A model generated the notes under the pieces. The model ran no database searches and was not told the DNA's origin. It was given only the letters and a program-made list of their open reading frames with translations. The position numbers and the translations under genes were made by a program. Positions 17,085-32,293 of a DNA stretch of 64,000 nt are shown piece by piece. Each line of letters opens with the position of its first letter. Position 1 is the first letter of the stretch. Origin of the DNA: a virus; IMG/VR virus record IMGVR_UViG_3300032236_001129, positions 1-64,000 of that record. One strand, written 5' to 3'.

Positions 17085-17157
17085 CTGGTCTGCTTGGACT
17101 CGAACCAAGAACCTGCCGATTAACAGTCGGCTGCTCTGCCAATTGAGCTATAGACCA
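17085..17157 (-). tRNA. tRNA-Asn (GTT)
   Basis: Cloverleaf: D-arm GCTC/GAGC, anticodon stem GCCGA/TCGGC with loop CTGTTAA, T-arm CTTGG-TTCGAGT-CCAAG; CCA not encoded. Confidence 0.95.
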
Positions 17158-17991: not shown

Positions 17992-18088
17992 TGCGCTCTG
18001 CTCCTCCTACTCTACTAGGTCTAGTCCCCTAGTGGGGTAGAGGGAGCAGGGCGAGTGACCCTGTTCTCTCTCCCTTAGGAGGGGAGAA
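17992..18088 (+). promoter_or_regulatory. Structured leader of the first plus-strand island gene
   Basis: Long G-U-rich hairpin 17992-18053, then TTCTCTCTCC-CTTA-GGAGGGGAGAA hairpin occluding the RBS. Confidence 0.5.
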
Positions 18089-18090
18089 TT

Positions 18091-18660
18091 ATGTCCACAC
18101 ACACACTAGCAACAGCACTAGAGCCTATCTTCGCAGAAGAGGGCAATAGTGAGAAGGCTGTAACACTCCGTTTCGTCAAGGTAGCAGAGATATTCTCCCG
18201 CTTCCCAGAGTCCAGCATTAACGATGCTTCAGACCTCATTAAGTCTGATGAAGTTCGCCGTCTGGCTCTCGGTGGCTGGTTGCTCTATACCTACGGGGCA
18301 ACGGATAAAAACAAGTCTGCTGTCTATAAGATGGCTCAACTAGGCAAGCCAGAAGCCTACCGCTCTATCCTCAAGGCTAAGTCTTGGGAAGATGTCGGCA
18401 AGGCATACAAGGCAGCCAAGTTGCGTATGGCAAAGGCTAAGGCAGCCAAGAAGCAAGAGGCTAATACCTCTGGCAATACGGCTACCTCTTTGCTTGCGTC
18501 TGCCTCACGCCTTGATGATGACTCACTTGTCTTCGTGGTGAACGAGGAGAATGACGAAGCCATCAAGGCTATGAAGCGTGCTATCAAGCGTTACGAAGCC
18601 ATCAAGACCCATAACAAGGTCAAGGCGGTAATGGAAGAGAGCGCACCAGCCCTAGTTTAA
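18091..18660 (+). CDS. Hypothetical protein, first gene of the early/accessory island
   Basis: 189 aa helical K/A-rich; GGAGG RBS. Confidence 0.75.
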   Translation: MSTHTLATALEPIFAEEGNSEKAVTLRFVKVAEIFSRFPESSINDASDLIKSDEVRRLALGGWLLYTYGATDKNKSAVYKMAQLGKPEAYRSILKAKSWEDVGKAYKAAKLRMAKAKAAKKQEANTSGNTATSLLASASRLDDDSLVFVVNEENDEAIKAMKRAIKRYEAIKTHNKVKAVMEESAPALV

Positions 18661-18689
18661 TTACTAGGTGAGCGCATCACGCAAGTAGG

Positions 18690-19120
18690 AGCAGGGGGGG
18701 CTACGGCTCTCCCTGCCTCTATCTATGTCCATAGTTACTATGGGCGTAGATGGGGTGATACCTCTGCCGTAATACTCAAGTGGAAGTCGCAAGTTGAGAT
18801 GAAAGTATGTATCTGCTATCCCCCAGAGTAATCCACGCCCGTTGATTCGGTGTCCTGCTACGAATAGGCTCTCAACTCTCTATGATGGGAGTTGGGAGTC
18901 TATTCAGGCTACTGTCGCCACGCATCTATTATCATTGTGAGTACCACCAAGCCTACGGCTAGGCGGTGGGTCTGCTATCAGGTATAAGACTAGACGGCTA
19001 GTCTGCTATCAGGTATGAGGCAGGCGGGTATCAGGTAGCGGGTGGAAGAGACATAGAACCTAGCGTACTGACCTATGTGTCTATGTGGCTACTCTCTATG
19101 TCTCTCTCACTCTCTATCTA
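18690..19120 (+). other. ORF-free cluster of G-U-rich hairpins and short direct repeats
   Basis: Hairpins 18691-18716, 18721-18751, 18862-18905; GTCTGCTATCAGGTAT at 18970 and 19001, partial copies at 18812 and 19029. Confidence 0.65.
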
Positions 19121-19191
19121 CACAGAGAGCAATCGGTATCCCCGCCGATTTTCGCCCAACATAAACAATACCCACCACGAAAGGTATCTCA

Positions 19192-19311
19192 ATGAACGCA
19201 TCTATCTATTGTGCTAAGTGTAAAGACAAGCACGATATCAAAGGCGCTGAGGTTATGAACCTCGTAACCATCGGCTCCTCGTATGTATGTAAGTCCTGTA
19301 AGGCTAAGTAA
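19192..19311 (+). CDS. Zn-ribbon microprotein (39 aa, not in ORF track)
   Basis: MNASIYCAKCKDKH...VCKSCKAK; GAAAGG RBS. Confidence 0.65.
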   Translation: MNASIYCAKCKDKHDIKGAEVMNLVTIGSSYVCKSCKAK

Positions 19312-19524
19312 ATGTGTGGCTGCGAATTAGGCGTTATGTGTGCCAAGCACAAGGCTTTACTCCCCAAGGTATGCGCTGTCCCCGACTGTACCTCTACCAA
19401 ACTCGTCTACTCCGGTACTGATGCCTTTATGCTAGGCGTGCCTACCGAGGTCTATTGCTATACCTGCGCCAATATCTTCTCGTTTATTACCTCATACGAG
19501 ACACGCTACGAGATAGCCAAGTAA
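19312..19524 (+). CDS. Cys-rich hypothetical protein
   Basis: 70 aa, abuts the upstream stop codon. Confidence 0.55.
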   Translation: MCGCELGVMCAKHKALLPKVCAVPDCTSTKLVYSGTDAFMLGVPTEVYCYTCANIFSFITSYETRYEIAK

Positions 19525-19561
19525 GTTTCCCCGCCCAATCCCTCACAGAAAGGCAATACCT

Positions 19562-19858
19562 ATGTCCGAAGAACGCTTCATAGAAGAAACCGATCCGCAT
19601 ACCCACCTATGGACACCATACGAACAGGAGCGACCACACCTACTCAACTTCTGTAGTCTGTGCCTTCGCCGTACCTATGTGATGGCTGAACTCACCTACT
19701 CCAATCAAGATGGCGAGACTGTCCATAGTGATTTGCCTCTGGAGCGTGAGTTTCTCCACGATGCCCTCAATGAGTGGCTAGACAAAGGCAACAAGACCGG
19801 CTATTTCTATGTGGGTAATCTCCTCCAACTCACACGAGATATGGGTAACGATATCTAA
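19562..19858 (+). CDS. Hypothetical protein
   Basis: GAAAGG RBS; HxH..CxxC. Confidence 0.65.
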   Translation: MSEERFIEETDPHTHLWTPYEQERPHLLNFCSLCLRRTYVMAELTYSNQDGETVHSDLPLEREFLHDALNEWLDKGNKTGYFYVGNLLQLTRDMGNDI

Positions 19859-19936
19859 CCAAGTTTCCCCGCCAATTTTCTGCCGGCGAGGGCGTTCCAA
19901 CACAAACACACCCACCACCACCAAGAAAGGACAACA

Positions 19937-20065
19937 ATGGACAAAGAACTCGCTCGTGTTATTGACGAGCATCTGAACAAGCTCGAAGAGTTTTGTATTA
20001 CAACTCTTGCTGAGATTGGCACTATCCGACTACAAGTACACCTCCTTAAAAACCTCACAAAATAG
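19937..20065 (+). CDS. Small hypothetical protein (42 aa, not in ORF track)
   Basis: MDKELARVIDEHLNKLEEF...; GAAAGGA RBS. Confidence 0.6.
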   Translation: MDKELARVIDEHLNKLEEFCITTLAEIGTIRLQVHLLKNLTK

Positions 20066-20097
20066 AGTTAACTGAGATGTCTACGGCTATGTAGACA

Positions 20098-20142
20098 CGG
20101 GCGGGTTGAGAGTTAGAGGGAACTCTCCCCGCCCCTTCTTTT
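20098..20142 (+). terminator. Putative intrinsic terminator
   Basis: GGGCGGG..GAGAGTT / AACTCTC.CCCGCCC followed by CTTCTTTT. Confidence 0.55.
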
Positions 20143-20164
20143 ACCCTCAATAGAAAGGCAACAA

Positions 20165-20392
20165 ATGCAAACCCTATCAGTACAAGCAACGATGACTAAA
20201 CAGGTCATCACACAGCACGACAAGCACCTTCTATGTCTAGCCATAATCAAACAGATAATGCTGATGCAAGTGAAAGAGAGCACCTATGTTCCGCAAGTAT
20301 CCCGACAAAGACAAGACACGAGTACAGCGTATACAGGAATTGCGTCGCTCGAACGCAGCGACTTCCTTACCCAACAAAAAGCGTTGGTCTAA
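20165..20392 (+). CDS. Hypothetical protein
   Basis: GAAAGG RBS; the coding frame is uncertain (overlapping CxxH/CxxR ORF 20233..20424). Confidence 0.35.
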   Translation: MQTLSVQATMTKQVITQHDKHLLCLAIIKQIMLMQVKESTYVPQVSRQRQDTSTAYTGIASLERSDFLTQQKALV

Positions 20393-20425
20393 GCGTATGC
20401 GAAACCTTTGGAAGAAGGAGTTAGA

Positions 20426-20569
20426 GTGAGCGATTGGCTTACCGAAGGCGTTAAGACAGAAGCAGGAAAAGAATTGATTATCTATATGAATCAACACTTT
20501 GGCTCAGCAGTATGGGGAAGAGTCATTGACGGAGTAAAAGCCATAGAGAAGGAGTTAAACAATGACTGA
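20426..20569 (+). CDS. Small hypothetical protein (47 aa, not in ORF track)
   Basis: GTG start after AAGGAG; MSDWLTEGVKTEAGKELII... Confidence 0.55.
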   Translation: MSDWLTEGVKTEAGKELIIYMNQHFGSAVWGRVIDGVKAIEKELNND

Positions 20570-20822
20570 TATAACAATCGTTACAATCACAGAAGGCACA
20601 GTCCTTCAGGGTGATGGCGGTGCGTCTACCGGCGCAATCGTGCTCCAACACAAACAAGCCGACAACTATACCGATGTAATCCTCTGCGATGCCTCGGTGG
20701 GTAGCCCTTATGACCCATATGTTGTATGGACTTACAATCACGAACGAGGCACTTGCTCTCGTGGTGAGTACTTTAACAACCTTGACTATGCCAAATCAGC
20801 CTATGAGGAGCGTGAGTGGTAA
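20562..20822 (+). CDS. Hypothetical protein
   Basis: AAGGAG RBS; PYVVW..GEYF...A pattern. Confidence 0.7.
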   Translation: MTDITIVTITEGTVLQGDGGASTGAIVLQHKQADNYTDVILCDASVGSPYDPYVVWTYNHERGTCSRGEYFNNLDYAKSAYEEREW

Positions 20823-21109
20823 TGGCTAAAAAGAAGAAAATAAAATGGGATGGCCCAGAGAATAGTTTCATTGGTAAAACCGTTAACTGGACTGATGAAG
20901 ACTTTCGTAATCACGGATATATGACCGTAAATGAGTTCGTTGAGAAGTTCTCCATTGGACTCAAAGCATATCTTGTCAATAATTGGAAGAGTTTTGATCG
21001 AGACCACCTATTACATCCCGAGGACTTGACTTCCAATATGCTCTGCTATGCCGAATCTGTATACGAGGTAATTAGCATCTTTGGGGTAGGTAGTACAAAT
21101 GAGGATTAA
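20822..21109 (+). CDS. Hypothetical protein
   Basis: TAATG coupling; start MAKKKKI. Confidence 0.6.
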   Translation: MAKKKKIKWDGPENSFIGKTVNWTDEDFRNHGYMTVNEFVEKFSIGLKAYLVNNWKSFDRDHLLHPEDLTSNMLCYAESVYEVISIFGVGSTNED

Positions 21110-21329
21110 CAAAAATCTGCCTGTATATGTAGCATCCGATGAATTGCTACAAGACTTAAATGATTTAGGATACAAGTCTATTGAGTTAGAAGATTTAATA
21201 GACTTTTTAGAAGAGGATGAGTCATACATACTAGATATCTATATCGGTATGGTAATGCACGACGAGTTGGCTTTTATGAGTTCGGCTGCTAGTAGAGCAT
21301 TACAAGCGTTAGATGCTCGTCCAACATAA
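21099..21329 (+). CDS. Acidic hypothetical protein
   Basis: 76 aa; its stop codon lies inside a CAACATAAACA copy. Confidence 0.6.
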   Translation: MRINKNLPVYVASDELLQDLNDLGYKSIELEDLIDFLEEDESYILDIYIGMVMHDELAFMSSAASRALQALDARPT

Positions 21330-21344
21330 ACATTCCCCGTTCGC

Positions 21345-21804
21345 CTATACCACCAGGACACACACCAAACAATACACTCATAAGGATAAGCACGGTAGGT
21401 GGCTGCCTGTTCAGCCTAATATCCTCTGCTTGTAATTCCCCACAGTTGTTGAGCGCAGTGGCGTATAAGATAGGTTCGTAGAACTTACTCACTTACAGAA
21501 CTGTGGATAAGGTAATCCCAAAAACGAGTAAAGGTCCTTTATGTATTTCGTTTGGTGTGTGCTCTGGTTGTATAGACAACCAGTATGAGGACACACGACG
21601 AATATGGAGCCACTCGGTGCGATAGGCGCTAAGACTTCGAACGCTTTACTCTGACGAGTTCGCTATTAGATGTATTCGACCCCCTAGTTCAAGCCCTTTA
21701 CACTCTCGCAAACTTCGTGGGTTGCGAACTGTTCTGGTTGCCCATAACGTTAGATAGTGTGGTCCTTCAAACCGGCAGTATGGGGGCTGTCTAACAGCCC
21801 CCAT
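21345..21804 (+). ncRNA. Candidate large structured non-coding RNA (~460 nt)
   Basis: Long-range helices 21359-21370/21550-21561 (12 bp perfect), 21345-50/21570-75, 21440-47/21499-506, 21577-83/21734-40; terminal 11-bp hairpin 21780-21804; no credible ORF. Confidence 0.6.
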
Positions 21805-21858
21805 CTGTATTAAGATTCCCACGTCCGTGGGATGTACCTGCTAAAAGGAGGTACGGCA

Positions 21859-22062
21859 ATGGCGAAGTCCGCCTTGCATTACTGTAACAACTGTGGTCGG
21901 CGTGTCCAACCACATCAAGCCAAGTTGGAAATCAAAGTGCGTCACGGCACAGATTTCTATCACGAAACTTGGGAAGGGTGCTATGAATCCACACGTGAAA
22001 GTGGTAAGCACGTTATGACTGAGTTAGAGACAGAGTTAGTTAAGATAACTCCAATCTACTAG
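21859..22062 (+). CDS. Hypothetical Zn-binding protein
   Basis: AAGGAGG RBS; CNNC...H...C. Confidence 0.65.
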   Translation: MAKSALHYCNNCGRRVQPHQAKLEIKVRHGTDFYHETWEGCYESTRESGKHVMTELETELVKITPIY

Positions 22063-22099
22063 AGTCAGTTGGTCTGGCGAGACCTGAGGTAAAACACGA

Positions 22100-22230
22100 C
22101 TCCTGAGCAATGAGACTAAACTGCTCACCTAACATTGGTACGACACTTGTGAAGTCGGGAGCAACGAGTTGCGAAATTCTTCCTCTTCGTCTACACCAAA
22201 TGTCCTGAGTATGACAACTAAAACTGCTCA
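22100..22230 (+). ncRNA. Two copies of a small H-type pseudoknot motif
   Basis: CTC-CTGAGCAAT-GAG-ACTAAAC-TGCTCA (22100-22127) and TGTC-CTGAGTAT-GACA-ACTAAAAC-TGCTCA (22201-22230) with compensatory changes. Confidence 0.65.
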
Positions 22231-22232
22231 CC

Positions 22233-22373
22233 GAGTAGGCGCTACCGTCCAATAGAGAAATCCCGAACCGCCAACAATCCCAAAGTATGATTTATTTCAG
22301 AAAGTGGAGGAGCGTACCGGCTGCCGTAAGGTAAGCGGTCAGAGAGTACCAAGGGACATTGGGGCGCCTACTC
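22233..22373 (+). ncRNA. Candidate structured RNA (~140 nt)
   Basis: Perfect 10-bp closing stem GAGTAGGCGC/GCGCCTACTC, inner CCAAT/ATTGG and TCCC/GGGA, GTAA-capped hairpin. Confidence 0.5.
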
Positions 22374-22393
22374 TCCATCTAGAAAGGATAGTA

Positions 22394-22567
22394 ATGATAA
22401 CCCTCATTAAAAGAAACACCACCGAGAAACTTCTATTCCTCTTAGAAGCACAGCTGTTTCACGGCTGCACTCGCAAAGAAGCATTGATGCTATGGAATGA
22501 TGGCATCGATACGCTGTACGACAGCGTCTCAACACAAACAATCCACACCGGAAGGATGGACAAGTAA
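22394..22567 (+). CDS. Hypothetical protein
   Basis: GAAAGGA RBS; start MITLIKRN. Confidence 0.55.
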   Translation: MITLIKRNTTEKLLFLLEAQLFHGCTRKEALMLWNDGIDTLYDSVSTQTIHTGRMDK

Positions 22568-22855
22568 ATGGCAAAAGGAAAAGGCGGAGCAAAAAGCGGT
22601 GGTCGCAACGACAATCGCCCTAATGGCAAGGCATTCAAAAAGGATCCCGGCCCTGCTCAAACACCAAAGACCAACTTCACACATATCAACGGACGCAGTC
22701 CTGAAAACAATGCTAAGCGTGAAGCGTGGAAAGCAAAAGGTGGTCGTTGGAACCACAAATCAATCCCTCATTGGAAGACTGGCAAAGTGTATGTTCCTAC
22801 AGCACTCACACCAGCCTTTGACCCTGAGAAGTTAGAGGCAGCCATTAATGGCTGA
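22568..22855 (+). CDS. Basic G/K-rich hypothetical protein
   Basis: 95 aa; coupled to neighbours. Confidence 0.65.
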   Translation: MAKGKGGAKSGGRNDNRPNGKAFKKDPGPAQTPKTNFTHINGRSPENNAKREAWKAKGGRWNHKSIPHWKTGKVYVPTALTPAFDPEKLEAAING

Positions 22856-23153
22856 GGTTCTCAAAGTCTATTCTCTTGACTATTTAAAAGAGAAACATTA
22901 TTCCGATGACACAACCGAGGATGCCACTCGTCTAGAGTGTGCTGGTCTTGTTATCGGTATGCTCGATCGTTTAGCAAAAAGCAAGCGCTTGCACCTTACC
23001 GAAGATGAGCTTCAGAGTTTGAAAAGCGCATTAGTTTATGCAACGATTGGGCAAACGCCAGTTGGCGATGCCTATATGAATGACACACTCATTGTGGTAG
23101 ACAGCCAAGAAAATGAATACGTTGCAGGAATCCCTGTAACTAACCCAGTATAA
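22848..23153 (+). CDS. Hypothetical protein
   Basis: 101 aa; overlapping start/stop. Confidence 0.65.
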   Translation: MAEVLKVYSLDYLKEKHYSDDTTEDATRLECAGLVIGMLDRLAKSKRLHLTEDELQSLKSALVYATIGQTPVGDAYMNDTLIVVDSQENEYVAGIPVTNPV

Positions 23154-23165
23154 GGAGGGCCAGCG

Positions 23166-23621
23166 ATGGCTACAACATCAACCACATCGTTAACATTCAA
23201 GCGCTCAGTTATCTTAAAGAAACTAGAGACTCGTGTTAATGAAATGAAGAAAGAGATAGACGCATGGGTAAAAGAAAACGACTCTCTATCTGATAGACAA
23301 AAAGCGTGGGACAAAAAAGCCCGTGCTTGGTTTAAAAAGAATGCAGCGTCATTGATTAATGACAATACATCCGTATACCATAACAGCCATTACCACAATA
23401 ACAATAGTTTCCGTTTTACTGTGGAAGCTAGCCCAGATAAAGTAATTGCTGCTATCGGTGAGTATCCAGAGCAAGATTGTCGTCCTGCTTGGGACCGTGC
23501 TGAGTATCGTGGTGTAAGCCCTATTGAAGAACTAGAAGCTAACATCGCTGCATTCAAAGCCGCAGAGGAAGATGAGATTAAGGTCTCAATCAAGAACAAT
23601 ATCTTCCGCTATATTAAGTAA
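23166..23621 (+). CDS. Hypothetical protein
   Basis: 151 aa; AAGGAGG RBS. Confidence 0.75.
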   Translation: MATTSTTSLTFKRSVILKKLETRVNEMKKEIDAWVKENDSLSDRQKAWDKKARAWFKKNAASLINDNTSVYHNSHYHNNNSFRFTVEASPDKVIAAIGEYPEQDCRPAWDRAEYRGVSPIEELEANIAAFKAAEEDEIKVSIKNNIFRYIK

Positions 23622-23638
23622 CCAACACAAACAAACCC

Positions 23639-23665
23639 GGCCCCGTCAATCGGCGGGGCCTTTCT
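23639..23665 (+). terminator. Putative intrinsic terminator directly after a 12-mer copy
   Basis: GGCCCCGTC-AATC-GGCGGGGCC-TTTCT. Confidence 0.55.
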
Positions 23666-23680
23666 CATAAGGAGGGCAGT

Positions 23681-24010
23681 ATGCGCAAGCTGCTGTTACG
23701 TACTAAAAAGGTGGCTGAACAAATCAATCGCCTTATGTTTGAGGAATATCAAGATAACCAATTCGAAGAAAGTCAAACTATGCGCTCATATAGCGCAGGT
23801 ATCATTGACGGCCTTGCATTGGCTTTAACTGTGATATCAGACACACCGGAGAAACTAGCTCCTTCATTCCCTCTAAGCATCTCGTTCTATGAGGAGGATG
23901 ATGAGTCTTGTACCATCGCTGCTAAGCAAGCACGTGTAGAAGCTATGCGTGAAAAGGTATTTGACTTACAGAATCAACAGAAGTTATCATTATTCTATGA
24001 GGAGGTGTAA
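23681..24010 (+). CDS. Hypothetical protein
   Basis: AAGGAGG RBS. Confidence 0.7.
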   Translation: MRKLLLRTKKVAEQINRLMFEEYQDNQFEESQTMRSYSAGIIDGLALALTVISDTPEKLAPSFPLSISFYEEDDESCTIAAKQARVEAMREKVFDLQNQQKLSLFYEEV

Positions 24011-24012
24011 CT

Positions 24013-24747
24013 ATGGCTGTTGACTGGCAATGGGCTAATGACTTCTTATCTAGAGGTCGTAAAAAGTATGAACGCCCCTTGTATGACCGAGGTCTTCGCA
24101 TTTGGAAAGAAAACAAATGGGATCCCGATAGCAATATCCACGTAGGTTGGAAGTATGGTGGCAGTGGCAATGCATTTGTTATCTATCACAAAGATGGCAC
24201 TACAACTATTCAAGGCCATCAACAACCTACTCATTGGGGTGGCAGTTGGCTTCCATTGCGTAGCTATTCTGTTCGCTTTACTATCCAACGCTATGCCGGT
24301 ATTCAGGTATCACAACGCAATTGGCAATATCATCTTACAGAAGATGATGCCCCGCTTACTCCACCAAAGATACAAGGTTGTAGAACTTGTAGACAAACTG
24401 GAAAAGTAGATGCTTGGTGTAACAGTCACAATTGTTACGATGGCGAAAAGGGTCCAGATGGCAAGATGCATTGTGAAACACATCCTGACGCACAGTTTCT
24501 AGGTGTTCAGTATCAATATCGTTGGCACGCATTACCTTGTGAGCATGGAAATCTTGATGGTCATATGGTGCCTAAAGCACAGACTTGCTATAGCTGTGGG
24601 GGCAATAAGAAGCGTGACTATGGCAGCAAGTATCAAACCACAATCTGGGATGGTTCCCCACTCAGACTGCGGGATGGAAAGATAATCAAATCAGCAGCAT
24701 CACTACTAGAAAGGATGGTGGCAGACTATGTCGACCCTGTCGGCTAA
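24013..24747 (+). CDS. Cys/His-rich hypothetical protein (DnaJ-type CxxCxxxG Zn motifs)
   Basis: GCRTCRQTG ... TCYSCGGN. Confidence 0.7.
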   Translation: MAVDWQWANDFLSRGRKKYERPLYDRGLRIWKENKWDPDSNIHVGWKYGGSGNAFVIYHKDGTTTIQGHQQPTHWGGSWLPLRSYSVRFTIQRYAGIQVSQRNWQYHLTEDDAPLTPPKIQGCRTCRQTGKVDAWCNSHNCYDGEKGPDGKMHCETHPDAQFLGVQYQYRWHALPCEHGNLDGHMVPKAQTCYSCGGNKKRDYGSKYQTTIWDGSPLRLRDGKIIKSAASLLERMVADYVDPVG

Positions 24748-25222
24748 GTATGACCCACAAGCAGTACCAGTAAATGAATCAGGTAATATGACAGAAATCA
24801 ATCAGATTGTATTGTATGTAGGCTCCGGCTTACTACCACAGAATCTATTGCGTATGTCAACACAAACATCGGCTCTTCGTGATGCCTTTGTAGCCAACAT
24901 CGCCAGAACCAGTATGGTTGAGGGCGCACTCGCTACGTTCCTTGGCAAGCTCGTTACAATTGAAAATGTAATGACTGCTGAAGAAATTGCAGTATGTGAA
25001 TATGCCGCAACTTTGGCGTATATGACAAACAACATTGATCTCGTTAAAGAGATTCTGATGCGTGTACCACCTAAATCAGTTAACAGCTATCTTCAAACGT
25101 TATACACAGCTGTTGCAGTTCGTAAATGGTCATCAGAAATATTCAATGATGCGCTTGCTGAAGCTTCTACTCAGTCTCTCTATCGATGGGAAGCTGAGAA
25201 AGCTAACGTTATCAACATCTAG
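24728..25222 (+). CDS. Hypothetical helical protein
   Basis: 164 aa overlapping the upstream gene. Confidence 0.65.
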   Translation: MSTLSAKYDPQAVPVNESGNMTEINQIVLYVGSGLLPQNLLRMSTQTSALRDAFVANIARTSMVEGALATFLGKLVTIENVMTAEEIAVCEYAATLAYMTNNIDLVKEILMRVPPKSVNSYLQTLYTAVAVRKWSSEIFNDALAEASTQSLYRWEAEKANVINI

Positions 25223-25248
25223 TTTTGATAGTCCATATGGCTATCAAA

Positions 25249-25420
25249 TGGAATGGGTTGGCTAAGCCTACCGCTGGTTAGACTGGCGTGATGCAAGAGA
25301 ACGAGTACGAAGCGAACAGCGGCACAGTTGCGTGTAACAACCGGTGCTGGTCTGCCTTCTAAAGTATGAGCTAGATCAAATAGTCCCTGCGAGGCATTGG
25401 GGGCAAGCCAATCCAATCCA
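25249..25420 (+). ncRNA. Candidate multibranched structured RNA (~170 nt)
   Basis: Closing stem TGGGTTGGCT/AGCCAATCCA (25254-63/25406-15), inner CCGCTG/CAGCGG and further hairpins; preceded by hairpin 25224-25248. Confidence 0.5.
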
Positions 25421-25438
25421 ATAAAGAAAGGAAACATC

Positions 25439-25699
25439 ATGTGCCACGAATGTGGAGATGAAGAAGATGACATTCAGTTTAGTTCTGAGTTCATCGATGC
25501 TTTACAAGAACTACCTCCTGAAGAAAAGGAAAACGTTCTAGATGATATGCAAGAGTCCATCGCATATGTGATGGAGAAAGCAGAACAGCAAGGGTTCTTG
25601 TTCGAGTTGATTACATCTTGGCCAAGAACAAAGGTTGCTATGTATGAGGCAGCCGTAGTCATGGAGAAAAATATTCTCGATGATGGACACACACACTAG
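25439..25699 (+). CDS. Acidic hypothetical protein
   Basis: GAAAGGA RBS; start MCHECG. Confidence 0.65.
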   Translation: MCHECGDEEDDIQFSSEFIDALQELPPEEKENVLDDMQESIAYVMEKAEQQGFLFELITSWPRTKVAMYEAAVVMEKNILDDGHTH

Positions 25700-25710
25700 A
25701 AAGGCACAAC

Positions 25711-27120
25711 ATGGAGATAGCAGTATTTACCGAGTCTTACGAACCAGGTATGGGTGCAAAGCGACGTCAAATCCTTATGGCACCATATGAGGGAGGCGTA
25801 AAAATCTGGTCACGGTTAACCGATGGAACTAAGGGCCCACACAATAAGTGGGAAGATACTTCATTGGCTGAGCTAAGTGACTTGGTTAGTAGCTCAGAGC
25901 AATTGACAAGGACCCCTGTTGGTGTATATGTTACGGCAGCAGATGAGAAGGCAATTGCAGACAAGGGTTACTCTCCTGTCTTAGGTACCAAGGCATGCAA
26001 TCAACATGCTAAGGCTGACCCAAATACAGATACAACTCCGTTCGCAGAAAAGCTCTGTGAACTCCACGATCAAATCCTAGTGGGGGATGATTCATTGGAT
26101 ACATATGTAATCGATAACCGACGTCAAGCTGGCGCTACAGTTCCATTGGTAATGCCAGTCTCAACACAAACAAACGAGGATGCTATGCCAACTGTTAAGC
26201 AATCTTCTGGTGGCAAAATTCTCAGCGTCAATCTTGCAACAGTTCCACGCAAGGAGCTAGCTGAGCGATATGTTCACCGTAAGATCTGGGGTCAAGAAGA
26301 CTTTGCAGTCTATGACCACGCACGTGCTAAAGGTACTAACATTCTTATCTATGGCCCAACTGGTCCTGGTAAGACTACATCTGTTGAAGCGTGGGCTGCT
26401 GAACGTGGCTTGCGCCTAGCAACAATCTCTGGTAATGCGTCTATGGAACCAAGCCAAATGACCGGCAAGTTCGTCTCTGATGGCGAAGGTGCGTTCATGT
26501 GGATTGACGGTCCCGTAACTGACGTAGTACGTAACGGTGGTGTTCTTCTGCTTGATGAGGTTAACTTCATCAATCCTAAGATCTATACCAACCTATATTC
26601 ATTGACCGATGGTCGTCGTAGCATTACTTTGCTTGACCATCATGGCGAGACTATTGAGGCTCACAAAGACCTCACTATCTTCGCTACTATGAATCCAGAT
26701 TACATCGGCACCACACCGCTCAACTTTGCGTTCCGCAATCGCTTCGACATTCAAATCCCATGGGATTATGACGATGCCGTTGAGGAGAAGTTGATTAGTT
26801 CTAAGGCTCTTCGTATCCTTATGAAGCAACTTCGCACAGAGGCTGCCAAGGGTCAATACGAGACTCCAATCTCTACCAACATGGGTATGGAGTTCATCGA
26901 CCTTATCGACTCTCTCGGCTATGAGTTTGCAGCCGAGAACTTCATTGCTCACTTCAGTACAGATGAGCAAGCCAGCGTACGCATGGTCTTCCAGACTCAT
27001 GAGCACAATGTCAAGTCTGACTTCGGTCTCGAAGCCAACATAAACATTGACCAACCTGCTGATAAGAGTCTTGATGATCGCCTGCAAGAATGGGCACAAC
27101 AAGTATCCGTTAACGTCTAA
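25711..27120 (+). CDS. MoxR/CbbQ/NirQ-like AAA+ ATPase with N-terminal extension
   Basis: Walker A GPTGPGKT, Walker B LLLDEVN, ATMNP, AFRNRF. Confidence 0.9.
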   Translation: MEIAVFTESYEPGMGAKRRQILMAPYEGGVKIWSRLTDGTKGPHNKWEDTSLAELSDLVSSSEQLTRTPVGVYVTAADEKAIADKGYSPVLGTKACNQHAKADPNTDTTPFAEKLCELHDQILVGDDSLDTYVIDNRRQAGATVPLVMPVSTQTNEDAMPTVKQSSGGKILSVNLATVPRKELAERYVHRKIWGQEDFAVYDHARAKGTNILIYGPTGPGKTTSVEAWAAERGLRLATISGNASMEPSQMTGKFVSDGEGAFMWIDGPVTDVVRNGGVLLLDEVNFINPKIYTNLYSLTDGRRSITLLDHHGETIEAHKDLTIFATMNPDYIGTTPLNFAFRNRFDIQIPWDYDDAVEEKLISSKALRILMKQLRTEAAKGQYETPISTNMGMEFIDLIDSLGYEFAAENFIAHFSTDEQASVRMVFQTHEHNVKSDFGLEANINIDQPADKSLDDRLQEWAQQVSVNV

Positions 27121-27129
27121 GGAGGCTAA

Positions 27130-29016
27130 ATGCTTATAGATGAATTAGATGATTCTCCGTGGGGTGGAGATGCTCGTTCTGAGCAAGACCAAGAGCGCAT
27201 AGTTCAACTAGGTGCTTTATGTCGTGTGTATGAACAAGCTGACCGAGTTCTCACTGGTGACCCAGTCATAGTCAACGTCATGCCAGATGGCCCTGCGCCA
27301 GCGTGGTCTGACGGCGCTGCTATCTATATCAATCAGCAAGAAATTACTGATATGGATTTAGAAACGCTAACTCAAGTCACCGGCCTGAACTATCATGAGC
27401 TAGCCCATCACTTCTATACTCCTCGCAAGGGTACAGAGCTAATCAAGTGGGTACTAGCCAACAACTATATGGAATCCGCCAATATGCTCGAGGACCAGCG
27501 CATCGAGACTTTGCTATGCGCTCGTTATCCAGCTGTTGCTCCATATCTCACAGGTACAGTAGCTAGATGGCTTGGTGAGACTCCTGAGGAACGACAGGGT
27601 GTGTATGCTCTCATCCGTGGTCGCAGGTATCTGCCAGTAGAACTACGTGAAGCATATCGTGATGAGTTTGCATTCCCGGAACTCATACCTGCTATCGTAG
27701 ACATCGTAGACAAGTATCGTCTGCTTGCATTCCCACGGGACTACAAGACAGCACAAGTACTTATCCAACGATTCAATGACGAAGTACTCAAACCAATCCG
27801 TGGTGACTTTCCACAGCTATCTGGTGGTCCCAATGGATGTGGTCATCGTGATCCAACAATCAAGGGTCGTCCTGAACCTGGCAAGATGCAAGAGAGAGAT
27901 GCTCAGCGTGCCGGCAATATGGGCAAGCCAGAGTCTGTCTATATGCCAATTCCTAAAGCCAAGGATGATGCCAACACAAACAGCACGCCAGACAAAAGCA
28001 ATCCATCTACAATGCCTGCTCCTAACAGTGCAGCGGAAGCGCTTGCTATACGTGAGGCGATTCAACAATCTAATCAACCACCATCTCTAGAACCAGGCGA
28101 AGGCCATCATGAGAGCAAGGGTGGTGTTCCTGATAATCTCCAGAGTATCTTGGATAACACTATGGAGGATATCTACAACAACAAAGCAGTTCAACAGGAT
28201 ATCAAAGCCAAGCAGCGTGTAATCGTTGGTGGCGATGGTAAGTTCGATGCGTCTACTAAACATGGCAAATTCGACCTCACCGATGTCCCTACTGACACCA
28301 TCATCATGTATCGTGCGTTTGCCAAAGAGTTGGAGCGCCTGCGTGATGAGTGTGAGCCTGGCTGGAACAAGGGTGTACCTAGCGGTAAGCTCAACGTTCA
28401 GCGTGTAATCAATGGATGTGAGATCGACGAAGCCTTTGACCGCTGGGAAGAAGGTAATGATGGCGCCGACGTGGAAGCCGTTATTCTAGTAGATCGTTCC
28501 GGATCCATGGGCTCTGACAACAATGACCGCAATGCTTCTCTTGCATGCTGGACTATCAAGCGTGCGTTGGAAGCCATCGATGCTCCAGTTACCGTGTATG
28601 CATTCGATGACAGGTCAGAGGTTGCGTATACCCGCTCCGAGCGTGCCCACAAAACACGCTTCAAATTTATCTATGGCAGCGGTGGTACAAATCCGTATAG
28701 CTCGTTAATCGCAGCCGAGCAGCTGCTTATGTCTTCTCGTAAGAAGAATAAGATGCTGTTTATCATCACCGATGGTGCCTTCAATCATGAGAAAAATGAT
28801 GAAGTCATCCAACGTATTAGCCGTCGAGGTATCTTGACTGCTATGACTCTTATCATGCGTGATAGAGACTATGAGTACTACAGCAATCGTGGCGAGAGCG
28901 ATAAGACTTTCCGACACGATGCTGAAGTATATGGCCGTATCAATTCAGCCCGTGACTTAGTGCCGTTTGCTAAGGCTGTAGTAATGGGTGCAATCAAGAA
29001 GCGCAGAAGCGCCTAA
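27130..29016 (+). CDS. VWA domain protein (CobT-like, N-terminal HExxH)
   Basis: HELAH..NMLEDQRIE; MIDAS DRSGSM, GGT, IITDG. Confidence 0.9.
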   Translation: MLIDELDDSPWGGDARSEQDQERIVQLGALCRVYEQADRVLTGDPVIVNVMPDGPAPAWSDGAAIYINQQEITDMDLETLTQVTGLNYHELAHHFYTPRKGTELIKWVLANNYMESANMLEDQRIETLLCARYPAVAPYLTGTVARWLGETPEERQGVYALIRGRRYLPVELREAYRDEFAFPELIPAIVDIVDKYRLLAFPRDYKTAQVLIQRFNDEVLKPIRGDFPQLSGGPNGCGHRDPTIKGRPEPGKMQERDAQRAGNMGKPESVYMPIPKAKDDANTNSTPDKSNPSTMPAPNSAAEALAIREAIQQSNQPPSLEPGEGHHESKGGVPDNLQSILDNTMEDIYNNKAVQQDIKAKQRVIVGGDGKFDASTKHGKFDLTDVPTDTIIMYRAFAKELERLRDECEPGWNKGVPSGKLNVQRVINGCEIDEAFDRWEEGNDGADVEAVILVDRSGSMGSDNNDRNASLACWTIKRALEAIDAPVTVYAFDDRSEVAYTRSERAHKTRFKFIYGSGGTNPYSSLIAAEQLLMSSRKKNKMLFIITDGAFNHEKNDEVIQRISRRGILTAMTLIMRDRDYEYYSNRGESDKTFRHDAEVYGRINSARDLVPFAKAVVMGAIKKRRSA

Positions 29017-29038
29017 CCAACACAAACAAGGAGGGTAT

Positions 29039-29230
29039 ATGTACACGATTTATGACAGCATCACGGAGTCTTTAGTTGAAGTCTTTAATGACTATGAGTC
29101 CGCACAAATGTTCCTACTACATCAGTCAGATAACCTAGCCGATGGTGGGGCTAATCTGTCTATTGAATACATTTCTACAGTACAAGAGTGGGCTATGGAT
29201 AATGGCATCAAATTGGAGGCGGTAATGTAA
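29039..29230 (+). CDS. Hypothetical protein
   Basis: AAGGAGG RBS immediately after a 12-mer copy; start MYTIYD. Confidence 0.65.
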   Translation: MYTIYDSITESLVEVFNDYESAQMFLLHQSDNLADGGANLSIEYISTVQEWAMDNGIKLEAVM

Positions 29231-29550
29231 TGGGAGAAGTTATTAACTTCGGAGACTATCTAGCAGCAAAGCAAGCCAACATGACAGTCGGTCAGCTACG
29301 TGGCTCAAGAGAGTTGATGGATGAGCTTCTATCCGAGCTAACTCCTGAGCAACTAGCTAGTGACTATATTCTCTATGTGCCAGAGTCTGTGGACGATGTC
29401 TGGCCTAGAGAGTATCTCTATATCATGCCTGAAGATCTTGGCAATCCCGGCTGTAGTGAGTGCCAGCATCTTAACTGGGAGGTTGTAGAGGATGGCTATC
29501 AAGCCAGATGCAAAGACTGCAAACTAAACGCTTGGAGTGCACCATGGTAA
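29230..29550 (+). CDS. Hypothetical protein with C-terminal Zn ribbon
   Basis: CSEC...CKDC. Confidence 0.6.
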   Translation: MGEVINFGDYLAAKQANMTVGQLRGSRELMDELLSELTPEQLASDYILYVPESVDDVWPREYLYIMPEDLGNPGCSECQHLNWEVVEDGYQARCKDCKLNAWSAPW

Positions 29551-29993
29551 ATACATTTCTACCTTGGCCAGACATGAAACGAACAGCTAAATCCTTAGAC
29601 AACAAGAGACTTGGTAAGCAACGTGTAGAGGCGTTGCAAATTCTGAGGGCCAACTTGGGTCTAACTAAGGGATGGGTTAATCACCCGGCTGCTGTGATGT
29701 GGCGTGGTCACGAAGGTTATCTATATATGTACACAAATGCTATGTGTATAGAGTGGAGACAACGTGGCTATGAAGATAACGTACAAGCACGGCTGCAAGA
29801 GCTGTATGCAGAACATGACATACAAGGTTGGGACCCGCCATGGTGGTGGGGTAATGATGAGTTCCATTCATCACATCGTTCTAACCTAAAGCGTAAAGAT
29901 CCGATTTGGTATCGGTTTCGTGTACGCAAAGATATTCCGTACAAATGGCCTACACCTAGTATGTCATTCAGAACAACAGAAGGAAAAAAATAA
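29544..29993 (+). CDS. Pyrimidine dimer DNA glycosylase / endonuclease V family (MSMEG_6728-like)
   Basis: TFLP..LDNKRLGKQRVEALQI..HPAAVMWRG..H.SHRSNLKRKDP. Confidence 0.9.
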   Translation: MVNTFLPWPDMKRTAKSLDNKRLGKQRVEALQILRANLGLTKGWVNHPAAVMWRGHEGYLYMYTNAMCIEWRQRGYEDNVQARLQELYAEHDIQGWDPPWWWGNDEFHSSHRSNLKRKDPIWYRFRVRKDIPYKWPTPSMSFRTTEGKK

Positions 29994-30190
29994 TGACCAT
30001 GTACAAAGTAACAATCCATGAACACAAGATCTACGATGCGTTCATTGAAGCACCAACACAGCAGCTGGCTATTGAAGAAGCTGAGAACCAAATTGTTGGT
30101 GAAGAAAATGCCAAGTGGCGTGAAGATTACAACGCTGGTTGGGCTGAAGTTGGCGAGGTTGAACTAGTAGAAGAGGAAGACTATGCCTAA
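29993..30190 (+). CDS. Acidic hypothetical protein
   Basis: 65 aa; TAATG coupling. Confidence 0.6.
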   Translation: MTMYKVTIHEHKIYDAFIEAPTQQLAIEEAENQIVGEENAKWREDYNAGWAEVGEVELVEEEDYA

Positions 30191-30716
30191 TTGGTGTGAC
30201 AACGCCATAATGATAAGAGGACAGAAAGATGAAGTACTCAAAGTAAAAGACTTTGTTACTGATGGTAACAATCCGTTTAGCTTTGAGAAAATCTATCCGT
30301 GTCCTCCTAAGTTAAGAAGTGAAAGCGCACCTAATAGAAACACACAAAGCTCTGAATTCAACACCAGTAAGTACGGGGCTAAAGATTGGTATGAATGGTG
30401 TGTTGATAACTGGGGTACTAAATGGGACTCATCTGAAACAGAGTTACTAACAGAACTGTTAGATGAAGACACATTACAAATAACCTGGAGCTACCAAACA
30501 GCTTGGGCTCCTCCCATCGGGGTATATGAGAAGCTGGCGGAGATGTTTCCCAACATAAACATTTTCGTTAACTTCGATGAATCCGGGATGGGATTCTCTG
30601 GTTGGAAATACTACAAGGATGGAGCTGTAGAGAAAGAAGAAGATTACGGCTCTTCCTACTACAGTATCAAGACCTTTATGGAACCAGATACTGATATATG
30701 GGATTGGTTAGATTAG
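30183..30716 (+). CDS. DUF1281/YubB ferredoxin-like fold protein
   Basis: MPNWC.N, DWYEWCVDNWGTKWD, TAWAPP. Confidence 0.85.
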   Translation: MPNWCDNAIMIRGQKDEVLKVKDFVTDGNNPFSFEKIYPCPPKLRSESAPNRNTQSSEFNTSKYGAKDWYEWCVDNWGTKWDSSETELLTELLDEDTLQITWSYQTAWAPPIGVYEKLAEMFPNINIFVNFDESGMGFSGWKYYKDGAVEKEEDYGSSYYSIKTFMEPDTDIWDWLD

Positions 30717-30728
30717 AAATGGAGGATC

Positions 30729-30938
30729 ATGGCCAATGACAAGTTAACTACAAAACTACGAATACTCTATGAGGTAGATATTGCCAAGTGGCGTATTGAT
30801 GATCAAAACGAAATCGAGAACCGTGAGTGGTGTCTTTATGTGTATGACCGTAACCAAGAGCAATGGGTTGCAGTCAGTAGCTTAAACGCACCAGGCGAGG
30901 GAGCTTCGATTAGACATATTCACGTAGTAGAAGAGTAA
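30729..30938 (+). CDS. Hypothetical protein
   Basis: GGAGG RBS. Confidence 0.55.
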   Translation: MANDKLTTKLRILYEVDIAKWRIDDQNEIENREWCLYVYDRNQEQWVAVSSLNAPGEGASIRHIHVVEE

Positions 30939-31038
30939 CCCCGGGCGCAATCCGGGGTACTCGGCTAAATGGTGCAAACTCTGTCGTACTTAGAGCTAGC
31001 ATTAACAAGTATACCCTAGACACTAGAAAGGAGATCCA

Positions 31039-31278
31039 GTGTTTGAATTCGCTAACATGCGATTAAAAGATAAAAACATAAAGAAACTGGTCTCTGCTCT
31101 AGAGGAAGCCGGTCTGGACGTCTCAATGACGCCAGGCAAGCATCACATTAAGGTGGTCAATAGTGACACTAAACAGGTGGTATTCTTTGGACCTCAGTCC
31201 TTAGGAGACTTTAGAGCGGGGAAAAATATACTCAGAGACCTCAAGAAGGTGGGCTTTGAGTCAAACATCAAACTATAG
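31039..31278 (+). CDS. HicA-like (dsRBD-fold) protein
   Basis: LVSALEEAGLDV..GKHHIKV...KNILRDLKKVG pattern. Confidence 0.55.
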   Translation: MFEFANMRLKDKNIKKLVSALEEAGLDVSMTPGKHHIKVVNSDTKQVVFFGPQSLGDFRAGKNILRDLKKVGFESNIKL

Positions 31279-31286
31279 GAGGAAGC

Positions 31287-31565
31287 ATGGCTAAGAAAGT
31301 AGATGCTACATTCAGTGTAGAAATCTGTAAGAACACGGAAAAAGGTGGTGCGTGGTTAGCTACATACACCATTACAGAAGATGGTGTGGAGAAGGGCTAT
31401 GTCAATGAAGCATGGTCTAACGCATCAGCTGCTAAACGATGGATTAAGTCCAAGGTTGTAGAACATACGCCACGTAAGTCCATCAAGCTTGAGATCACAA
31501 CCAAGGACTTAAATGACAAACCAACATGTATCAAGGGTCAACTAACATATAAAGTGGAGGCATAA
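31287..31565 (+). CDS. Hypothetical protein
   Basis: AGGAGG RBS; AWSNASAAKRW. Confidence 0.7.
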   Translation: MAKKVDATFSVEICKNTEKGGAWLATYTITEDGVEKGYVNEAWSNASAAKRWIKSKVVEHTPRKSIKLEITTKDLNDKPTCIKGQLTYKVEA

Positions 31566-31789
31566 TGAACGTCAACATGGAAACTGCAGAGAAGGTTGCT
31601 GAACTAGGCAACATGACTATGGATATAGCTGAAACACTATCTGATCTACTCGGTGACGACGAGCTTGATTATATGATGCTGTTAGACGCTCTTGCTATAC
31701 ATGGCTACACCATTGAGAAGGCCAAGGGTGAGAATATAGCCAGCATAGCCTACATGTACGGCCTCTCATTAGAAGCACAGGATGCATAA
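31565..31789 (+). CDS. Hypothetical protein
   Basis: Coupled ORF. Confidence 0.6.
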   Translation: MNVNMETAEKVAELGNMTMDIAETLSDLLGDDELDYMMLLDALAIHGYTIEKAKGENIASIAYMYGLSLEAQDA

Positions 31790-32065
31790 ATGGATATGGA
31801 GACAATACTTCCCCGGACATGTGTAGTGTGTCATGGCCGGGGTTACATCTTCCAAGGTAACTCGGAAGACTGGGACGTTACAGCATGTGATGCATGTGAT
31901 GATGAAGCGGGAGCTAACTATCTCCTAGCTGCTGACGCATACGACGAAATCGAGATGAAGATGGAAGAAAATGATGAGGAGCTTACCAAATGCCAGGGTT
32001 GTGGTGAGCCGTCTATGCTTGATGAGTTAGACCTAGATCTGCTCTGCGACTATTGCGCTGAGTAA
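31790..32065 (+). CDS. Double Zn-ribbon protein
   Basis: CVVCHGRG..CDAC; CQGC..CDYC. Confidence 0.6.
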   Translation: MDMETILPRTCVVCHGRGYIFQGNSEDWDVTACDACDDEAGANYLLAADAYDEIEMKMEENDEELTKCQGCGEPSMLDELDLDLLCDYCAE

Positions 32066-32073
32066 TCTCACAG

Positions 32074-32113
32074 AAAAAGCCCCCCGGCCTTAATTGGTCG
32101 AGGGGCTTTTTTT
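32074..32113. terminator. Bidirectional terminator at the right border of the plus-strand island
   Basis: AAAAAGCCCC...GGGGCTTTTTTT between convergent genes. Confidence 0.8.
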
Positions 32114-32128
32114 GTTTGTGTTGGCCGT

Positions 32129-32284
32129 TTATGCGAGGTCTTCGTCAGCCTCTGGCTCATCGTCTACGATTGAATCCTCTAGGTCTTCTAAATCGTCCTC
32201 ATCGAAATCGAAATCTTCGAAGCCGTCTTCAAGGTCTGCTTCAAAGTCCTCATCGAATAGGTCTGGGTTGATATCTTCTGACAC
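32129..32284 (-). CDS. Hyper-acidic 51-aa peptide (not in ORF track)
   Basis: GTG start after AAGGAG; MSEDINPDLFDEDFEADLEDGFEDFDFDEDDLEDLEDSIVDDEPEADEDLA. Confidence 0.7.
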   Translation of the reverse strand: MSEDINPDLFDEDFEADLEDGFEDFDFDEDDLEDLEDSIVDDEPEADEDLA

Positions 32285-32293
32285 GCTATCTCC

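Follow-up and report, generated by a model that had tools for sequence, protein, structure and literature searches.

Structured plus-strand RNAs of uncultured freshwater phages form a modular family in which two conserved pairings compete

What is encoded by a stretch of some 460 nucleotides (nt) that lies between two small phage genes, holds no substantial open reading frame (ORF) and seems to fold upon itself? The question is raised by positions 21345-21808 of a 64-kilobase (kb) stretch of DNA, called the window below, which is the first part of the 100,206-base-pair (bp) virus record IMGVR_UViG_3300032236_001129 of IMG/VR; the ends of that record share a 79-bp overlap. We find that 21345-21808 belongs, as the representative in this phage, to a family of plus-strand structured RNAs not described before. 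The conserved structure is modular, contains two competing pairings that are both conserved, and is not tied to any one downstream gene. Further, compensatory mutations show, at the level of sequence comparison, that the RNA structure is under selection. The original prediction, made from the letters of the window, had proposed an ORF-free, base-paired element of about 460 nt with a possible switch. Folding, homologues and covariation bear out this outline; two of the helices that it drew in the second domain did not stand.

Evidence for a structured RNA family

The plus strand of 21330-21830 has a predicted folding energy of -162.6 kcal/mol, compared with -137.3 +/- 5.6 kcal/mol for dinucleotide shuffles (z -4.53), and none of 100 shuffles equalled it; the excess stability expected of such an element is thereby present. 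The minus strand folds equally well (z -4.40), and thus folding energy does not decide the strand. Base-pair usage does. In the modelled pairs, G-U cells outnumber A-C cells by 57 to 4 and by 40 to 8 (together 97 to 12), and one covarying stem is capped by GNRA loops (GAAA, GCAA, GUAA, GGAA and GAGA) when read on the plus strand, but not on the minus strand. These features place the structure on the plus strand, which is also the sense of the surrounding genes.

Between the stop codon at 21329 and the ATG at 21859 there are only short ORFs of 30-67 amino acids (aa). No ORF is conserved among 14 homologues, whose longest ORFs (30-91 aa) differ in strand, position and length. By this measure the element is not a protein-coding gene, and the stretch is ORF-free as claimed. 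Nor does it resemble a described RNA. The Rfam 15 search comprised 4227 models, including GOLLD, ROOL, HEARO, OLE, raiA, 6S, RNase P, transfer-messenger RNA (tmRNA), group I and II introns, riboswitches and T-box. At the gathering threshold, cmscan of the window returned only a transfer RNA (tRNA), tRNA-Asn at 17085-17157. Region 21000-22600 gave two chance matches at E <= 10, both outside the element, and six relatives gave only tRNAs and chance matches at E <= 1. ARAGORN found no tmRNA or tRNA-like structure in the element, reporting the tRNA-Asn alone in the window and, in relatives, tRNA-Arg outside the element. A group I or II intron was considered and rejected: no model matched, there are no flanking exons, and the element sits between a stop codon (21327-21329) and a ribosome-binding site (RBS) with its ATG (21845-21861). 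The searches agree with the earlier impression that hallmarks of tmRNA, RNase P and group I/II introns are missing. With no Rfam match, and with covariation well above controls (below), the proposal of a novel large structured RNA is sustained.

Homologues were reached by several routes; those named below carry L numbers. The zinc-ribbon-like protein encoded downstream of the element led to two related contigs with a recognisable element and an identical 18-mer, TGGTTGTATAGACAACCA. Exact scans of IMG/VR and metagenomes with this 18-mer gave further members, mixed with chance matches, and a profile of the zinc-ribbon protein gave members with altered 18-mers (L048 and L054/L055). A second subclade (L309, L310, L313, L314, L315, L323/L329, L326 and L327) was found by core sequence, and then by core pattern, in whole records of more distant relatives. 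A first pattern built on one arm of the P1 stalk produced only chance 18-mer matches, and a scan with the conserved 3' leader motif produced zero additional members. The zinc-ribbon protein has many metagenomic homologues, which stand outside the RNA alignment. The family comprises about two dozen distinct sequences, all on phage-like contigs, several of them 90-105 kb long. Measured from a conserved 12-mer to the next start codon, members are 317-607 nt long, L012 being the shortest at 317 nt. The carriers form a clade of uncultured freshwater phages with genomes of about 90-105 kb.

The RNA is composed of a stalk, P1, of 22 to about 45 bp; a local hairpin of 16-18 nt, H-local; and a core closed by a helix, P3. 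The stalk and the tip that it carries make up domain 1:

21345-21377, plus strand: 5' arm of the P1 stalk, with CTATAC, ACCAG, CACACACCAAAC and AATACA; G-U pairs on the plus strand only
21378-21542, plus strand: type-A tip of domain 1, with a multi-branch interior
21543-21575, plus strand: 3' arm of the P1 stalk, its last 11 nt overlapping the competing hairpin H-local

The stalk is the constant part of domain 1. Its length is 26 bp here (2 mismatches, 1 G-U); in L010 it reaches about 45 bp, and the mini forms have 22-25 bp. The long interrupted helix first drawn as closing domain 1 is this stalk, with arms 21345-21377 and 21543-21575, and it is 99.6% paired across 9 homologues. In the type-A tip the helices are AAGGA/UCCUU, UAAGCA/UGCUUG, GGUA/UAUC, GGCUG/CAGCC, CCACAGUU/AACUGUGG, GCG/CGC and UAGGUUC/GAACUUA. 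The predicted pairings TAAGCA/TGCTTG, AAGGA/TCCTT, CCACAGTT/AACTGTGG and TAGGTTC/GAACTTA all recur in the consensus fold, most of them with compensatory changes, and AATACA/TGTATT is kept in relatives as CCACA/TGTGG and CTACA/TGTAG. The suggested GGTAG/CTGCC gives way in the family to GGUA/UAUC and GGCUG/CAGCC. The consensus was built on nine type-A sequences and 69 pairs, and 97.7% of its cells pair. Double changes occur in 12 of the 69 pairs, compared with 5.2 +/- 1.6 in shuffles (0/500 as high) and 0-1 in slid controls.

The tip varies and comes in at least four kinds. An unrelated multi-branch tip, type B, crowns the long stalk of L010, and a type C is found in L048. A plain 22-25 bp hairpin replaces the tip in L012, L014, L015, L022, L054 and the entire subclade 2. 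Each of the four domain-1 forms closes into the P1 stalk, with z-scores of -2.8 to -7.9. Even near-identical phages can differ by whole-tip replacement, as L014 does from L009/L044.

Replacement of an interior bounded by 33-nt arms is also what might be expected of a mobile-element remnant or passenger, whether a decayed intron or an insertion like a miniature inverted-repeat transposable element with the P1 inverted repeat at its ends. We consider this origin extremely unlikely. The arm sequence is single-copy in the genome, and its matches in IMG/VR are either this locus or unrelated coding sequence without a second arm. Further, the arms keep G-U pairs on one strand only, and the intron models and flanking exons are wanting, as stated above.

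Domain 2 is the core of the RNA. It holds conserved loops, an optional GNRA hairpin, a hairpin described as UUCG-like and a strong 3' hairpin:

21587-21596, plus strand: 5' strand of P3, the closure of domain 2, GAGGACACAC; begins a few nt after the 18-mer
21597-21698, plus strand: 5' part of the domain-2 interior, with conserved GCUAAG, the optional hairpin module and conserved AUGUAUYCGACCCC
21648-21659, plus strand: optional hairpin, with a UGAC loop here and a GNRA loop in relatives; 4/4 pairs covary
21699-21733, plus strand: hairpin with conserved tip ACUUCGUGGG on a freely covarying stem; compensatory changes in 10/13 pairs
21735-21744, plus strand: small weak hairpin UGG-UUGC-CCA; in relatives UUGG/CCAA, GAUU/AAUC and AUUG/CAAU
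21757-21768, plus strand: 3' strand of P3, GUGUGGUCCUUC; ends right before the 3' hairpin
21776-21808, plus strand: 3' GC-rich hairpin, an 11-bp core (21780-21804) extended by CAG/CUG; covaries

The domain-2 analysis covers 47 pairs in 12 sequences, in an alignment that is rough in its variable parts, and 93.6% of cells pair. Double changes occur in 24 of the 47 pairs, compared with 9.7 +/- 1.9 in shuffles (0/500 as high) and 2-9 in slid controls; thus covariation among homologues, which the original prediction had anticipated, exceeds the shuffles in both domains (about 5 and about 10 pairs, respectively). The pairing of P3 is kept with a different sequence in each lineage: AAGCAUUGC/GCAAUGCUU in L015, AUCACCG/CGGUGAU in L048, GUAAC..CCGA/UCGG..GUUAC in L031, and CACCAU/AUGGUG versus CACUAC/GUAGUG in subclade 2. 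The stem of the optional hairpin likewise alternates between ACUCA/UGAGU and CCUAU/AUAGG among relatives. This hairpin, the one at 21699-21733 and the 3' GC-rich hairpin are the best of the domain-2 helices. The 11-bp hairpin forecast at 21780-21804 is perfect and covarying; the GC-rich hairpin built on it is terminator-like, yet has no good U-tract.

The closing helix of domain 2 is P3, and not the pair first proposed for that role, CAACCAG (21577) with CTGGTTG (21734). Four bp of the latter are kept in relatives (CCAR/YUGG), but it is absent from the minimum-energy fold and competes with the small weak hairpin. The proposed AGTTCGC/GCGAACT is not conserved; its GCGAAC belongs to the strongly covarying local hairpin at 21699-21733.

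Two pairings that share one strand

A local hairpin competes with the stalk:

21565-21582, plus strand: H-local, UGGUUGU-AUAG-ACAACCA, near-invariant; incompatible with the outer 11 bp of P1

The strand that the two share is the final 11 nt of the P1 3' arm, which also form the 5' half of H-local, and so the local alternative hairpin envisaged in the original prediction exists and excludes the outer closing stem. The minimum-energy fold contains the outer part of P1, and lacks H-local, in 12/12 full-length members. Imposing H-local raises the energy by 1-9 kcal/mol, with the smallest penalty in the mini forms; the value for L048 is artefactual, a non-canonical pair having been forced.

Invariance of the 18-mer among homologues collected with the 18-mer is a search artefact, and the informative members came by other routes. 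Members found without it have H-local in no fewer than four forms: AGGUUGU..ACAACCU, GGGUUGU..ACAACCC, GGAUUGU..ACAAUCC and GGAUUGC-AUA-GCGAUCC. The outer part of P1 covaries as well, CUAUAC/GUAUAG becoming CUAUGC/GCAUAG in L310 and L314. In L310, a U-to-C change in the shared strand is matched by A-to-G changes both in the P1 5' arm and in the 3' arm of H-local; in L314, the P1 partner alone follows the shared-strand change. Both pairings appear, from these few independent events, to be under selection. Because both covary, with one three-way change among the events, the comparison favours a genuine conformational switch between P1 and H-local, resting on a small number of independent substitutions. 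The switch that had been offered as a possibility thus has compensatory changes behind each of its two pairings, in homologues found without the sequence concerned.

The near-invariance of H-local admits a different explanation at the level of DNA, namely that the palindrome serves a GntR/HutC-type or phage regulator as operator, or that the region is an origin or a single-strand initiation signal, its hairpins forming in single-stranded DNA. Upstream of hutU-hutH in Massilia, a site between the -35 and -10 hexamers matches the inner 16 nt of H-local, GGTTGTATAGACAACC, exactly, and the same site recurs in promoters of Janthinobacterium and Duganella. The core also fits GT-N-TA-N-AC, the consensus of the HutC subfamily. 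Changes that are symmetric, as in AGGTTGT...ACAACCT, are likewise compatible with a dimeric DNA binder, and G-T wobble is tolerated in single-stranded DNA as well.

Several facts cast doubt on this explanation, and we consider it most unlikely. Unlike the bacterial sites, that of the phage lies within a structured, presumably transcribed RNA, has no promoter hexamers around it and is coupled to a P1 partner. No GntR gene (PF00392) was found in the phage genome, and the likely host group differs from Oxalobacteraceae. In L310 and L314 the GT..AC core is broken although the hairpin persists, and the P1 partner changes along with it, a pattern that an operator in DNA leaves unexplained. Further, the GNRA loops and the overall pattern of covariation are features of RNA. 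Finally, chance alone should yield about 280 copies of an exact 16-mer in the 596 gigabases scanned, and the match may be coincidence; the 16-mer is also present at a locus in an AT-rich Actinomycetota metagenome-assembled genome, and that locus is uninformative. In the Oxalobacteraceae themselves, GGTTGTATAGACAACC lies between TTGACT and TAGACT/TATGCT upstream of the genes for urocanase and histidine ammonia-lyase (L086 2427-2442 and many loci among L088-L165), where it is a probable HutC operator.

Neighbouring genes and the relation to the downstream gene

In the window, the genes up to about 17.7 kb point leftward, and those between 18.1 and about 31 kb point rightward. The RNA lies within the rightward block, among small genes with no assigned function, with the ORF 21099-21329 on its 5' side and the zinc-ribbon-like gene on its 3' side. 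At the end of the block are genes for an AAA_5 ATPase and for a VWA-domain protein. The features next to the RNA are:

20822-21109, plus strand: gene for a 95-aa helical protein that carries an invariant HPEDL motif; of all neighbours of the RNA, the most constant
21321-21332, plus strand: clade-specific oriented 12-mer CCAACAYAAACA; contains the TAA stop of ORF 21099-21329
21333-21344, plus strand: linker UUCCCCGUUCGC between the 12-mer and P1
21805-21858, plus strand: conserved leader of the next gene, single-stranded CUGUAUUAAGAUU plus two hairpins
21817-21832, plus strand: leader hairpin 1, covarying
21834-21839 with 21849-21854, plus strand: leader hairpin 2, covarying; occludes the Shine-Dalgarno sequence AAGGAGG at 21845-21851
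21859-22062, plus strand: gene for a 67-aa zinc-ribbon-like protein (CxxC...H...C) with a strong Shine-Dalgarno sequence; directly 3' of the RNA in subclade 1 only

This arrangement suggests that the RNA could be a cis-acting leader (an attenuator, a riboswitch or a protein-responsive element) whose core would sense a ligand or a protein and in which the P1/H-local switch, the 3' hairpin and the RBS hairpin set the expression of the next gene. All 16 of the 16 subclade-1 members have the RNA directly upstream of the zinc-ribbon gene and on the same strand; between RNA and gene stand two hairpins, one resembling a terminator and one, which covaries, sequestering the Shine-Dalgarno sequence; and the two mutually exclusive, covarying pairings are in keeping with such a device. 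Riboswitch and T-box leaders share this order of a structured domain followed by terminator-like and Shine-Dalgarno-occluding hairpins, as well as mutually exclusive pairings.

We nevertheless regard a leader function as unlikely. In subclade 2 the sequence downstream of the RNA is different: a large gene or other non-coding motifs follow directly, and the zinc-ribbon gene is 2.2-2.9 kb downstream (L309, L313, L314 and L315). Because RNA and gene are 2-3 kb apart there, the RNA is not simply the leader of the zinc-ribbon gene, and linkage to a downstream gene is not constant. Unlike riboswitch and T-box leaders, the RNA matches no known aptamer or Rfam cis-regulatory family, and it has no conserved anti-terminator: in L010, L015, L031 and L048, pairing of the conserved GACCCC to the 5' arm of the 3' hairpin is not possible. 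Nor do the relatives' sequences show a conserved strand that could pair with either the 3' hairpin or the RBS hairpin. The size of the RNA (300-600 nt), its swappable tips and its perfect duplex of 26-45 bp are also atypical of riboswitch leaders.

The gene for the HPEDL protein is the steadier companion, lying upstream of the RNA in 16 distinct relatives, at times with one ORF between. AlphaFold models of the zinc-ribbon protein (pLDDT 77) and the HPEDL protein (pLDDT 78) matched no solved fold (Foldseek E >= 0.09, VIA Z <= 3.6); small ribosomal zinc-ribbon proteins show a weak resemblance, which is not significant. Matches in the protein atlas were all to unnamed viral clusters, Pfam and PHROGs gave no match for eight small neighbouring proteins, and a search for relatives of the 76-aa ORF 21099-21329 found none.

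The stop codon upstream of the RNA lies inside the 12-mer, 15 nt before P1, and in L010 P1 starts about 14 nt after a stop codon; the 12-mer copy at 21321-21332 ends 12 nt before the helix, as first noted. Because this leaves no room for a promoter of its own before P1, we infer that the RNA is co-transcribed within a rightward early operon. The independence originally claimed for the element gains support from subclade 2, where the RNA is separate from the zinc-ribbon gene; no promoter of its own is visible. Over 18000-32500 of the window, sigma-70-like sites are rarer than in shuffles (14 versus 25.2 +/- 4.8 expected). No sigma factor (PF04542) is recognisable in the phage genome. Single-subunit phage RNA polymerase (PF00940) had no match in the genome either, a result without weight, as the control genomes were also all blank. 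GenBank phages gave no DNA match to the element or to the 12 kb around it. The phage DNA polymerase is closest (40% identity) to those of the Streptomyces phages Alone3 and BRock, of about 112-116 kb, a weak hint of an actinobacterial host. Elsewhere in the window, a 492-aa queuine tRNA-ribosyltransferase homologue (PHROG 887; 34370-35848, minus strand) adjoins the ribonucleotide reductase gene and hints at DNA modification of the 7-deazaguanine type.

The 12-mer CCAACAYAAACA has 12 plus-strand copies at 19156-30561 of the window, spaced 0.7-1.5 kb apart, and one minus-strand copy (32113-32124) after the leftward ribonucleotide reductase gene. It is confined to these sites in the 100-kb genome, with 0.06 copies expected per window, and it is present in all relatives, on the plus strand only. 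Copies are found in each of the three reading frames, and many coincide with a stop codon or stand 15-40 nt ahead of a start codon. Relative to the RNA, the 12-mer is on the 5' side in subclade 1 and on the 3' side in subclade 2. In 12 members, the RNA is no more complementary to the 12-mer than chance allows, contrary to an antisense relationship. Asymmetric words of 12-13 nt are known from the stoperators of Cluster A mycobacteriophages (PMC9283540) and the start-associated sequences of Cluster K (PMC3203893). Like these, the 12-mer follows the direction of transcription, occurs about every kb and is found at stop codons or before start codons; unlike them, it has a different sequence, its copies lie within one 13-kb block and no repressor was identified.

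Other signals in this region were recorded alongside. One 12-mer copy lies inside the AAA_5 ATPase ORF (25711-27120); GAGG and then, at 26185, an ATG in frame come after it, all within 26162-26187 of the window. This ATG, just ahead of the ATPase domain, may be an internal start or mark a mis-joined gene. A second non-coding stretch (22063-22393) carries two copies of GUCCUGAGYAUGAC ... AAAACUGCUCA as well as GGUCUG..GACCUGAGGUAAAAC. These motifs recur at L007 2557-2700 and L008 4247-4410, and in L313 and L314 they lie directly 3' of the RNA with no zinc-ribbon gene between. Just past the zinc-ribbon gene, three relatives have a tRNA-Arg (anticodon TCT or CCT; L031 2559-2632, minus strand; L045 2172-2245, minus strand; L054 1757-1830, plus strand), where the window has the repeated motifs. 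In subclade 2 (L309 1333-1420; also L313, L315, L323 and L327), a hairpin spans the stop codon of the HPEDL gene and is followed by a strong GC hairpin with a T-run. The linker string CCCGTTCGC is also found in the loop of this stop-codon hairpin.

Processing, function and nearest known systems

What, then, does the RNA do? The roles first suggested for it, as a protein sponge, an anti-defence decoy or an RNA that binds RNA polymerase, are conjectures. The reading that we prefer, and to which we give an even chance on the strength of these comparisons, is that of an autonomous non-coding RNA (ncRNA) of the early operon, possibly processed at P1. It would be made as part of an early polycistronic transcript and would act as an autonomous module, most likely a protein-bound ncRNA, and not as the leader of one gene. 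During transcription P1 would form first, because its arms are transcribed ahead of the competitor. The duplex could then be a site for RNase III-type processing; at 22 bp or more, it has the length of such a site (about 20 bp or more). Once P1 was cut or opened, the freed 3' arm would refold into H-local, and the released core would have H-local as a structured 5' end and the GC hairpin as its 3' end. The swappable tip, the conserved hairpin and the conserved loops could serve as recognition or binding surfaces. Candidate partners are the adjacent HPEDL protein (20822-21109) and, in subclade 1, the downstream zinc-ribbon protein also.

The same duplex would serve a simpler purpose if the element were only a determinant of mRNA processing and stability, with P1 as an RNase III site of the T7 type, hairpins protecting the ends and no function of its own. 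A near-perfect duplex of 22-45 bp is present in every member, the mini forms resemble single irregular hairpins of about 25 bp, the tip is swapped as freely as a passenger would be, and the element lies between cistrons of a polycistronic early region. The RNase III sites of T7 early mRNA and the lambda N leader are single hairpins of about 60 nt with no conserved multi-helix core attached. The present RNA resembles them in being a duplex, some two or more helical turns long, between cistrons of a polycistronic early transcript, and cleavage, which is here a conjecture, would similarly leave structured ends and could trigger refolding. Unlike them, it carries a conserved multi-helix core. Neither this core of 200 nt, with its conserved loops, GNRA hairpin and deeply maintained P3, nor the near-invariant 16-nt hairpin is needed for processing. 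We think it distinctly unlikely that processing is the sole role.

In kind, the nearest known RNAs are ROOL and GOLLD, which are large, multi-domain, phage-borne RNAs of unexplained function, often near tRNA genes (PMC5737381; 10.1101/2024.12.08.627333). The present RNA is likewise hundreds of nt long, multi-domain, supported by covariation and carried by phages; tRNA-Arg is nearby in three relatives, and some of the ROOL and GOLLD RNAs have been found in lake metagenomes. It differs in giving no cmscan match, in being smaller (with a core of about 200 nt), in its position within an early operon, and in its long perfect stalk, interchangeable tips and competing invariant hairpin. It is, then, a new family within the known kind of large structured phage RNAs.

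Certain observations weigh against an autonomous, processed ncRNA. A look-up of sequencing runs gave one run with the sequence, a DNA metagenome that may be its source, and no RNA run. We infer RNase III cleavage of P1 from the length of the duplex alone. The inner 12-16 nt of H-local are more invariant than a hairpin requires, and this invariance could reflect sequence-specific DNA binding, given the identity to a HutC-type operator. The covarying hairpin that occludes the RBS, together with the terminator-like hairpin, fits a cis-regulatory role, at least in subclade 1. The models of the neighbouring proteins matched no known RNA-binding fold. Finally, the GC hairpin and T-run of subclade 2 stand only 5-10 nt before P1, which is awkward for read-through into the RNA.

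A bolder form of the autonomous reading is that these RNAs constitute a new class of phage ribonucleoprotein or ribozyme-like RNA, in which processing triggers a switch, the core refolds around the invariant hairpin and the tips are diversifying specificity modules. In that event the tips might engage or decoy host factors or defences, and the invariant hairpin might also mimic a HutC-type operator of the host. We consider this improbable. Large structured RNAs with conserved tertiary-style features are rare, and new classes of them have tended to bring new biochemistry.

The family has implications beyond this one locus. With two mutually exclusive pairings that are both kept by compensatory mutation, it offers a tractable natural example of an RNA switch. 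Its architecture, in which the tip of a stalk is exchanged between otherwise near-identical phages and a compact core accepts an optional GNRA module, is that of a modular RNA. The 13-kb early region around it is unusually rich in non-coding signals, and the carriers belong to an uncultured and abundant group of lake phages, probably of Actinobacteria. The RNA family thus gives access to the control of gene expression in phages in which no RNA polymerase, sigma factor or repressor can be recognised.

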